In this document: positions 17,273-18,834 of the stretch, piece after piece
How the letters are laid out: each line of letters starts with the position of its first letter
Numbering within the stretch: position 1 is the stretch's first letter
IMG/VR virus record: IMGVR_UViG_3300027533_000056
Coordinates: 1-37,262 of that record
Source: a virus
Lineage: Duplodnaviria; Caudoviricetes
Strand: one strand, 5' to 3'
Length of the DNA: 37,262 nucleotides
Program-made: the position numbers and the translations under genes
The notes under the pieces: model-generated
Told to the model about the DNA's origin: nothing
Databases searched by the model: none
Seen by the model: the letters and a program-made list of their open reading frames with translations, nothing else

Positions 17273-17566
17273 ATGAAAATATCGGTTAATGATCAAGAGT
17301 TATTCACTCTTTCAGAAACTCAGAAAAAAGTGATAAAAAATGATATTCACGCAGATCTTTTTGATGAGGATATGAAAAGACGTCTTCAATACATTTTGAT
17401 GCATAAATATGAGCAATGTTTCAAAAGATTAAAGGAACAATGGGATGAAGAATTTAGGAAAAAGGGAATACCATCTCTTCCGACTGATCCTGATGCTTAT
17501 GCGGAATTAGTTTTTTCTCAACCAGAATATAAAGATAGAAAATCAAGAGATGTTAGAGTCGGCTAA
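17273..17566 (+). CDS. Hypothetical protein (possible fibre chaperone)
   Basis: 97 aa, AGGAG SD, last gene of the tail cluster. Confidence 0.6.
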   Translation: MKISVNDQELFTLSETQKKVIKNDIHADLFDEDMKRRLQYILMHKYEQCFKRLKEQWDEEFRKKGIPSLPTDPDAYAELVFSQPEYKDRKSRDVRVG

Positions 17567-18415
17567 TTCGTCATCTGAATTTGGCTCAGGATTTCTAATA
17601 CTTGAAGTGGACCAGAATACTCTCTTTGGACTTATCGTTGATAATGGTCCAGAATCGGGATGGGCTTCTTCCACTTCTTGATATTGAGGCCTATAAATAG
17701 TTCGATAACAAGGAGAAGGTGCTACAGGACATTCATTATCAGAATCCATTTCATCTTCAGTGTCACATTCATGCACAGTAGGTGGAAAATTATTCGCTGT
17801 TAAATTACTTTCATGCGCTGGACTGCGTCTAATCTGATATCTCTTCAATTTACTCCATGTGACTTTTTTCCCATTACTATGATGGATCAATGGAGGGACG
17901 TCTAAATCATCTTTCGTAACGGGTTCTGGATTGGTTTCAGCAGATTCTAATGACTCTTCTTCTGCATTATAAACTACTAGAGGCTCTGTAGAGGTCTTTT
18001 CATAAGAATCTGAAATATCTACTTTTAAATGTGTGGTATGATCTGTAGGATCAAGAGGGGTCTTTTCGCCTGCTTTATCTAATAGAACAGGATTTGATTG
18101 ATGAATAACTTCCGGCAATACCTCATCACTATTTACTGAATTTGATACAGGTCTTGACTTATCGTAATGTTTAAGTGCCAAGATAAGGATCGTCCATAAG
18201 GCACTTGTCACACTACCTACAATCACACATGTTTTGAAAGAAACCCCTACAACATGAGCTGAGATGGCATATGCCATGATGCCAGGAATAGCCATGATGA
18301 TAAGAATACCTAAAGCAAGAGTGACAATTTTTCCTATTTTCAGAAATGCATTAGATGAACTTGATTGGCTTATATTAGAGATAGAGCTATCTGAATGTCT
18401 GACAGATTCAATCAT
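17543..18415 (-). CDS. Inc-like membrane protein / candidate type III effector with two RVxF motifs
   Basis: Ser-rich N-terminus, ~55-aa bilobed hydrophobic domain, ~200-aa acidic Pro/Ser-rich tail with KKVTW and KRVFW. Confidence 0.6.
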   Translation of the reverse strand: MIESVRHSDSSISNISQSSSSNAFLKIGKIVTLALGILIIMAIPGIMAYAISAHVVGVSFKTCVIVGSVTSALWTILILALKHYDKSRPVSNSVNSDEVLPEVIHQSNPVLLDKAGEKTPLDPTDHTTHLKVDISDSYEKTSTEPLVVYNAEEESLESAETNPEPVTKDDLDVPPLIHHSNGKKVTWSKLKRYQIRRSPAHESNLTANNFPPTVHECDTEDEMDSDNECPVAPSPCYRTIYRPQYQEVEEAHPDSGPLSTISPKRVFWSTSSIRNPEPNSDDELADSNIS

Positions 18416-18789
18416 GCTTTTTCAGGAGGATTTTTCTCTACATGTTTAGATGTAAATCTACTTAACCAACTCTTTTTCACGACAACAGTTTCTTCTTCTT
18501 CTGGCTCTTGTATTCTTGATTTTTTGAAGTATTTATATGCAACACTCATGATCAATCCTGCTGCAACCGATATTGCAGCACACATCACACGTTGTTTGAA
18601 ACGATACTGTAATAAATATGCAACACCATAACCAGCAGTTGCTGGAATGGCTATGATTGCAAAAAGGCTCAATGCAAAAAGTGTAATTTTTTTTAATTTC
18701 TCAAGACGCCTAGATGATGCTGATTGCTGTAGATCTGAAAAAAAATTCTCTGAATGTCTTCGTGGTTCGATAGAACGTGCGGGATCCAT
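18412..18789 (-). CDS. Inc-like membrane protein, paralogue of downstream gene
   Basis: Two hydrophobic lobes; start at ATG 18789 with AGGAG SD; ATGA-coupled to the next gene. Confidence 0.6.
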   Translation of the reverse strand: MDPARSIEPRRHSENFFSDLQQSASSRRLEKLKKITLFALSLFAIIAIPATAGYGVAYLLQYRFKQRVMCAAISVAAGLIMSVAYKYFKKSRIQEPEEEETVVVKKSWLSRFTSKHVEKNPPEKA

Positions 18790-18805
18790 GATGCTTCTCC
18801 TGGTT

Positions 18806-18834
18806 ATTCTAAAATCATTATCTACGCGTAGCAA
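18806..18834 (-). promoter_or_regulatory. Promoter of Inc-like cassette
   Basis: TTGCTA-17-TAGAAT upstream of AGGAG-ATG. Confidence 0.65.

Follow-up and report, generated by a model that had tools for sequence, protein, structure and literature searches.

We analyzed a near-complete tailed-phage record of 37,262 bases (IMGVR_UViG_3300027533_000056, here G000; the whole of this stretch is referred to as the window) and found that it carries two overlapping minus-strand genes, A and B, which encode small membrane proteins. On balance, and with moderate confidence, we favor the reading that A and B are type III-secreted effectors resembling chlamydial inclusion membrane proteins (Incs) and that B recruits protein phosphatase 1 (PP1) of the eukaryotic host. 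A and B would be made as early phage products inside an environmental chlamydia and exported, via their N-termini, by the chlamydial type III secretion system (T3SS). Their hairpins would insert in the vacuole (inclusion) membrane with the tails facing the cytosol of the eukaryotic cell. There, the conserved RVxW motif of B would bring in PP1, and a host kinase acting on the SPK beside that motif might tune PP1 binding. A, whose tail is only 37 amino acids (aa) long, would serve as a spacer or as a partner for the hairpin. What the phage gains is a matter of speculation and could be control of the state or exit of the eukaryotic cell while the bacterium is consumed. The host, type III export, inclusion localization, and PP1 binding are all steps that we infer from sequence features and gene sharing.

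In both proteins, a polar N-terminus of 29-34 aa is followed by one two-peak hydrophobic block of 53-54 aa (hydropathy windows). AlphaFold2, run on a seven-sequence alignment, predicted for B a helical hairpin (H18-55/H60-86) and no structure for the rest of the protein, with low confidence (mean pLDDT 43; hairpin 50-76; tail below 50). These data bear out the bilobed hydrophobic domain that an earlier, sequence-only reading of this DNA had described in each protein. That reading had also noted homology between the first lobes, and we found that the homology is wider: A and B share 33% identity across 63 aa with both lobes included (pairwise BLASTP, E 1e-10), and a search of 1.84 billion proteins with B gave just four matches, among them a variant of A (E 4.6e-5). 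Our data indicate that A and B are paralogs over the whole hairpin. The two open reading frames (ORFs) share an ATGA overlap and are preceded by a Shine-Dalgarno (SD) sequence, as had been described, with the start of A moved to the ATG at 18789, the best candidate, rather than the TTG at 18834. A and B occur as 90% clusters of three and seven variants, respectively, all of which are intact (all 125 aa for A; all 290 aa for B). Since a contig of another sequencing run covers positions 15500-20482, both phage flanks included, with nine differences, the cassette is not an assembly chimera.

Incs have been described as having two transmembrane (TM) helices, a loop of <30 aa, and a hydrophobic domain of 40-60 aa, according to the consulted part of PMC3048545. 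A and B show this geometry (hydropathy; AlphaFold2 for B), and no conserved prokaryotic family was found to cover either protein. The same topology had been taken as defining Incs; it is shared by any two-helix membrane protein with both termini inside (N-in/C-in), so this feature is not sufficient to identify a protein as an Inc. Since secretion, host, and localization rest on inference, we describe A and B as Inc-like by geometry and do not class them as Incs. The N-termini, which had been called polar and Ser-rich, are polar in both proteins, while the Ser richness is extreme in B (10 of the first 25 residues are Ser, the highest number among 2351 phage-group ORFs) and only modest in A (five, a number that 5.6% of these ORFs reach). 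This N-terminus is conserved across A, B, and distant homologs, and no Sec signal is evident in A or B as judged from the hydropathy profile alone. A loose hairpin screen was passed by 19 of the 2351 phage-group ORFs, comprising four from the A/B cassette (in the window and in L007), two that represent one other 110-aa gene, and others most of which we judged to be antisense frames. Two relatives encode an unrelated protein of 110 aa that starts with a polar segment and has a hydrophobic hairpin at its C-terminus (L018:16418-16750 (+) and L086:1017-1349 (+)); its cluster has five members.

The T3SS effectors SteD and EspZ/SepZ combine an N-terminal signal with a two-helix hairpin, the layout proposed here for A and B. 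In the ESM Atlas, SteD was in the top three for both A and B, and SepZ for A, with scores of 0.77-0.78. This likeness appears only as a sub-threshold language-model score, below the level reached by a third of shuffles, and we therefore treat it as a lead only.

We found two distant homologs of B, each encoded by a contig of approximately 2 kb: P0162 (302 aa, E 3e-15) and P0163 (281 aa, E 7e-4). Both are 31-33% identical to B and keep the N-terminal pattern, the hairpin, and an acidic tail of roughly 200 aa, about half of which is P/E/S/T/D; the tail of B is likewise acidic and P/E/S/T/D-rich. The three tails align in short islands only, namely PxDPTDHT, with conserved L, V, and SYE after it, and a PDSxPL that is followed by SPK and VxW. 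PP1-docking motifs follow the pattern [RK]-x(0,1)-[VI]-x-[FW]. In its predicted disordered region B contains two matches to this pattern, one of which is kept in all three divergent sequences, with S262, P263, K264, V266, and W268 invariant across B, P0162, and P0163. When the tail of B was shuffled 20,000 times, 0.2% of the shuffles contained two or more loose motifs. A stricter RVxW pattern, present in 0.3% of shuffles, was chosen post hoc and is given no weight, and the FFAT, B56, and calcineurin motifs, checked by eye, are not conserved. Eukaryotic PP1 is usually anchored through RVxF, and the Legionella effector LpPIP (Lpg1625) is membrane anchored and recruits PP1 through RVxF, as stated in the sections of PMC12313075 that were consulted. 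These data suggest that B might recruit PP1 in a comparable manner.

Beyond these homologs, A and B are sparsely distributed. P0162 lies on L128, convergent with the C-terminus of a tail fiber (phrog_11393, E 3.5e-5) that is not homologous to the fibers of the window's clade; a second phage type therefore appears to carry a B-type gene at a like position. A metagenome scan returned four loci: two copies of the window phage, L128 itself, and L129. The last was rejected as a chance match within a histidine-kinase-like ORF, and, as it was the sole apparent metagenome match of that kind, no A/B homolog was found in a free-living bacterium. Scans of IMG/VR with A, B, and alignment A2 returned only the near-identical record L043, and in word-index searches (lengths 0.55-1.75x) A and B retrieved nothing beyond their own 90% clusters. 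A profile of A/B matched two of 50 records searched (50 of the 71 loci first chosen), one being the near-identical G042 and the other G001:C20 (E 0.047), which we treat as chance. The profile was absent from all 23 near-complete virus records of relatives, from the 746 ORFs of chlamydial plasmid stretches, and from seven fiber-sharing loci, and neither A nor B was found in 20 whole contigs of relatives. B against plasmids gave noise only (E 0.1-0.3).

We asked which bacterium this phage infects, and gene sharing points to Chlamydiota as the probable host. For this comparison, 2654 clade ORFs were searched with tblastn against 221 kb of sequence from chlamydial plasmids; these plasmids were targeted on purpose, with small controls only. 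The head of a Gly-rich tail-fiber-like gene (14966-15262) is 61-62% identical to two Criblamydia plasmid genes (E 4e-32, 6e-30). This head was found in one of the five plasmid records searched, was not found in the Simkania, Legionella, Photobacterium, and Arsenophonus records, and gave a single match, at 36%, among 251 Bacteroidales genomes. Furthermore, the clade shares with the Criblamydia sequanensis plasmid a TerS-like protein (51%), a methylase (59%), DUF1064 (61%), a recombinase-like protein (51%), a small lipoprotein-like protein (53%), and fiber ends (56-63%). Clade fibers match gene arrays of Rhabdochlamydia plasmids at 29-60%, and a gene pair matches Waddlia pWc at 47-49%. Searches of plasmids gave no chlamydial match for the portal, the Euo-like protein, TerL, TerS, the small 62-aa membrane protein, 8 kb of DNA, or the fiber at 13888-14949, nor for RecE or ParA among the matches listed, and profiles of the lipoprotein, 62-aa, 97-aa, and 99-aa families had no match in plasmid ORFs. 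The arrays on the Rhabdochlamydia plasmids (L179, L180; e.g., L180:13398-19502), annotated as hypothetical, are homologous to the clade's tail-fiber-like proteins and are possibly domesticated phage fibers or decoys. As a separate observation, a double HTH_17 protein of G024 (L153:2694-3080 (-), equal to L031:13333-13719) is matched only by generic HTH_17 models; we take it to resemble chlamydial Euo and do not use it as proof.

Sister phages whose capsids are 88-96% identical to that of the window carry other eukaryote-type cargo. In G006, the capsid is 96% identical and one gene (L137:5723-6745 (+)) specifies a protein with a glycine zipper and a U-box. The U-box falls just short of the Pfam cut-off (20.2 bits, with 21.4 required; E 6.5e-4), and among PDB entries the protein is best matched by Legionella LubX (E 3.8e-4). 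In Parachlamydiaceae, U-box and F-box effectors are expanded, and type III signals were reported in tested family members in the part of PMC4209131 consulted. G030 encodes a 204-aa Ser-rich protein with a CaaX-box end, unique among the ORFs screened (L158:1200-1814 (-); also L104:328-942 (-)), and G008 holds a run of five orphan genes, four of them with a single C-terminal membrane anchor (L139:2752-4787 (-)). No Pfam family matched this five-gene run at a meaningful E-value, and F-box and SNARE identities considered for these genes were dropped for want of Pfam support. The cargo of G006, G030, and G008 argues that the clade lives inside eukaryotic cells. The proposal that the cassette encodes phage-borne effectors aimed at a eukaryote thus gains from the conserved eukaryote-type tail motifs, the sister cargo, and the gene sharing with chlamydial plasmids, which make Chlamydiota the probable host group. 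The G030 CaaX protein may cluster with L099:295-777 or a similar disordered orphan.

A broader picture is possible, and we put it forward tentatively, as something we would not yet expect to hold. The window may belong to a large undescribed family of short-tailed double-stranded DNA phages of environmental Chlamydiae that carry an exchangeable set of effectors directed at eukaryotes, made up of Inc-like PP1 adaptors, a U-box ligase, and prenylated and tail-anchored proteins. The set would be expressed without integration and would rely on the T3SS of the bacterium to turn the protist cell toward release of the phage, and the family would be both source and shuttle of orphan chlamydial Inc repertoires.

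A and B occupy a variable accessory slot of this tailed phage. The slot lies between the fiber block and RecE, bordered by a conserved 97-aa gene (found in 36 loci) and a small lipoprotein-like gene, and in relatives it holds varied cargo, e.g., a GT92 glycosyltransferase or an FkbM methyltransferase. The sequence-only reading had called the pair a moron with its own promoter, TTGCTA-17-TAGAAT. The pair does sit in a slot where the relatives searched lack it, as a moron would, but a moron with its own promoter is not supported. TTGCTA-17-TAGAAT is present and is a match at 9 of 12 positions, yet the region contains four such matches against 7.4 +/- 2.3 in shuffles. Its -10 box ends just 4 nucleotides (nt) ahead of the SD, so that a normal transcription start would land inside the SD. 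No terminator-like site was found between the A/B pair and the upstream same-strand Erf-RecE-lipoprotein genes. Given a chance-level promoter and the failure to find an integrase in a scan of 56 window ORFs, A and B may be ordinary early genes.

Several of our observations weigh against A and B being secreted Inc-like effectors of a chlamydial phage. No Pfam, NCBIfam, or PHROG family matched A, B, P0162, or P0163 above cut-off, there was no match to any Inc family, and the weak family matches are of generic membrane type (phrog_944, E 0.012-0.046; a holin family, E 0.41). Foldseek against PDB, using the low-confidence model of B, also returned no match. A single loose RVxF match occurs in 6-10% of shuffled tails (6.9% for B's tail) and in 23% of the 2351 phage ORFs; the case for PP1 therefore rests on duplication and conservation, and conservation is backed by only three independent sequences. 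A has no RVxF-type motif. With respect to the host, the only two matches in 185,579 GTDB genomes are contigs in metagenome-assembled genomes (MAGs) titled Bacteroidales and Parcubacteria, none being chlamydial. TerL has 25 plasmid matches, none chlamydial and with Gammaproteobacteria leading at 45-49%, the integrase of a relative is nearest to that of Legionella adelaidensis (43%), and the fiber module also occurs, at 41-66%, in seven other viral contigs. The two GTDB matches are the separate contigs L001 (G001:C109) and L002 (G002:C23), and they are probably mis-binned, since the capsid gene occurs in just one of 251 Bacteroidales genomes, which is the same MAG. No FHIPEP gene was found in the Bacteroidales and Parcubacteria MAGs.

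We considered whether A and B instead stay in the bacterial inner membrane, both termini cytoplasmic, and serve superinfection exclusion or host takeover. This explanation survives better than the other alternatives, and we regard it as unlikely. Two helices with basic flanks fit an N-in/C-in protein, the genes come after the lipoprotein gene of the early block in a slot that relatives fill with glycosyltransferases and a methyltransferase, and the phrog_944 family that P0162 and P0163 weakly match is labeled 'membrane protein' in the moron/host-takeover category. However, a function in the inner membrane would leave unexplained a 200-aa acidic disordered tail with conserved RVxW and SPK, a conserved Ser-rich N-terminus, and the eukaryote-type cargo of sister phages.

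A second alternative, which ranks next and is also improbable, keeps A and B as eukaryote-directed membrane effectors and changes either the host, to another intracellular bacterium (Legionellales, Babelota), or the route, to lysis-time release or a type IV system. Neither the motifs nor the cargo depend on the host as evidence; the best solved match of the U-box protein and the nearest relative of the integrase named above are both from Legionella, and the fiber module is common to other phage groups. Against this, gene sharing is densest with chlamydial plasmids, and the fiber is absent from the Legionella record searched. Furthermore, the conserved segment of A and B is N-terminal, which is where type III substrates have their signal; Dot/Icm signals lie at the C-terminus.

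A very improbable alternative is that A and B are inc genes taken up from a chromosome and carried as passengers without benefit to the phage. Their patchy presence, with none of the 23 near-complete relatives having them, would agree with passengers, as would a G+C content (0.365 and 0.379 for the two genes) near that of the phage (0.373). Both genes are intact, however, in all members of the clusters of seven and three, a 33%-identical homolog stands at a like position beside the tail fiber of another phage, and no chromosomal copy was found, although chlamydial chromosomes were not searched directly. Least probable of all is a holin/antiholin-like lysis pair. The small size, two helices, and charged tail of A and sub-threshold holin-family matches (P0163 at the E-value given above; one structure-search row under the bar) would suit such a pair. 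However, A and B are encoded on the early strand and the late genes on the other, no endolysin family was found in 56 window ORFs or 138 ORFs of relatives, and the pair is missing from 20 of 20 whole relatives, which must lyse too.

The reading of A and B as Inc-like effectors has precedents in part. Prophages of Salmonella and pathogenic Escherichia coli supply T3SS effectors, through lysogenic conversion of free-living enteric hosts, and APSE is also among the phages with eukaryote-aimed genes. The eukaryotic association module of phage WO is likewise carried by a tailed phage of an obligate intracellular bacterium, as described in the consulted part of PMC5062602. WO, however, integrates, infects Alphaproteobacteria, and encodes large proteins with eukaryotic domains, whereas the window phage encodes small motif-bearing membrane proteins and has a P22-type portal and no integrase that we could find. 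The three-partner system suggested by the sequence-only reading is thus known from other bacteria, and none was found reported for Chlamydiae. Across the literature covered, with supplements and most subscription papers outside its scope, we found no report of phage-borne effectors for Chlamydiae or of phage-borne Incs, nor of tailed chlamydial phages so equipped. What appears new is the conserved PP1-type motif in the tails of distant B homologs; phage-borne effectors in general are already known.

Incs resemble A and B in their polar N-terminus, bilobed two-helix hairpin, orphan sequence, and tandem paralogs (PMC3048545, in the part consulted). A and B differ in that they are phage encoded and match no Inc family in sequence; their secretion and localization are predicted. 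Incs are considered to be confined to Chlamydiae, and a good many of them are orphans, 68 of the 76 predicted in Protochlamydia having no ortholog among the genomes compared in the same source. The Inc CT228 recruits the myosin-phosphatase subunit MYPT1 to the inclusion, restrains extrusion, and controls exit, according to the portion of PMC6717882 consulted; CT228 acts through MYPT1, whereas B is predicted to bind the catalytic subunit of PP1 directly. LpPIP, as described in PMC12313075, is like B as predicted here in being membrane anchored, in recruiting PP1 through an RVxF motif, and in having basic residues upstream of the motif. It differs, in a comparison made by description, as a type IVB-secreted Legionella protein of the mitochondrial outer membrane with its motif in an N-terminal cytosolic domain. 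If our reading is correct, phage carriage would be a route for the birth and spread of Incs, and a virus would, by way of the bacterium that it infects, control a phosphatase of a eukaryote.

On the phage side, the nearest described element is Criblamydia sequanensis plasmid 1, which shares tail-fiber-like, TerS-like, methylase, DUF1064, and recombinase-like genes with the phage family and differs from the window phage in its baseplate and tail-sheath-type genes, its different capsid module, and the lack of an A/B homolog. Phage-derived genes (a 'phage group') on chlamydial plasmids have been described (PMC7846284, as far as its text was available), and the word 'phage' does not occur in the Criblamydia genome announcement (PMC4208316). 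A single-cell study of protists mentions unclassified viruses for which Chlamydiales are the predicted hosts (PMC12644861, in the part consulted).

Table 1. Coordinates of the cassette, its sequence features, and neighboring genes (positions in the window)
Feature	Position	Strand	Description
Gene A	18412..18789	-	125 aa: polar N-terminus 34 aa, hydrophobic hairpin, charged tail 37 aa
Gene A hairpin	residues 35-88, nt 18687-18526	-	from hydropathy
Gene B	17543..18415	-	290 aa: Ser-rich N-terminus, hairpin, predicted disordered tail 208 aa
Gene B hairpin	residues 30-82, nt 18328-18170	-	from hydropathy
SPKRVFW, B residues 262-268	17612..17632	-	predicted RVxF/W-type PP1-docking motif with adjacent proline-directed kinase-type site
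KKVTW, B residues 183-187	17855..17869	-	second RVxW-type motif; absent from P0162 and P0163
PxDPTDHT, B residues 120-127	18035..18058	-	invariant tail motif; conserved L, V, SYE after it
Shine-Dalgarno AGGAG of gene A	18797..18801	-	7 nt ahead of A's ATG
Promoter-like TTGCTA-17-TAGAAT	18806..18834	-	chance level; crowds SD
Small lipoprotein-like gene	18921..19145	-	last of the upstream Erf/RecE leftward block; one border of the variable slot; family in 14 loci
Conserved 97-aa gene	17273..17566	+	ends the tail-fiber block; convergent with B, 24-nt overlap; other slot border
Gly-rich tail-fiber-like gene	14966..15889	+	host marker; N-terminal 99 aa resemble two Criblamydia sequanensis phage-plasmid genes

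The rest of the window encodes a P22-like portal, a large terminase, a GP3-type small terminase, a major head protein, and tail-fiber-like genes, together with RecE/Erf, a Cro-like repressor, a ParB-like gene, and several HNH genes. Of the 56 window ORFs scanned, none could be placed in an integrase, endolysin, or holin family; relatives G006, G023, and L019 have integrases and G009 has ParA. With regard to lysis genes, no endolysin, holin, or spanin family was recognized in the window or in the 138 unlabeled ORFs of relatives. The clade is large, with capsid relatives encoded in 169 IMG/VR stretches. At least half of the cassette's words are present in nine of the 21 listed sequencing runs (two of the nine are possibly the source), from groundwater and freshwater-sediment metagenomes, and there is no RNA run among the 21.

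The first 100 bases of the window are found again at about 36,730; the record therefore spans approximately one genome length, and its overlapping ends diverge. These ends (1-530 and about 36730-37262) differ, an HNH gene (439-1065) following a shared gene at the start and not at the end, which suggests two strain variants in one assembly. Finally, the large terminase (24911-26461) is 31-35% identical to those of relatives whose capsid is 85-97% identical and 45-49% identical to gammaproteobacterial ones, and it may represent a swapped packaging module.

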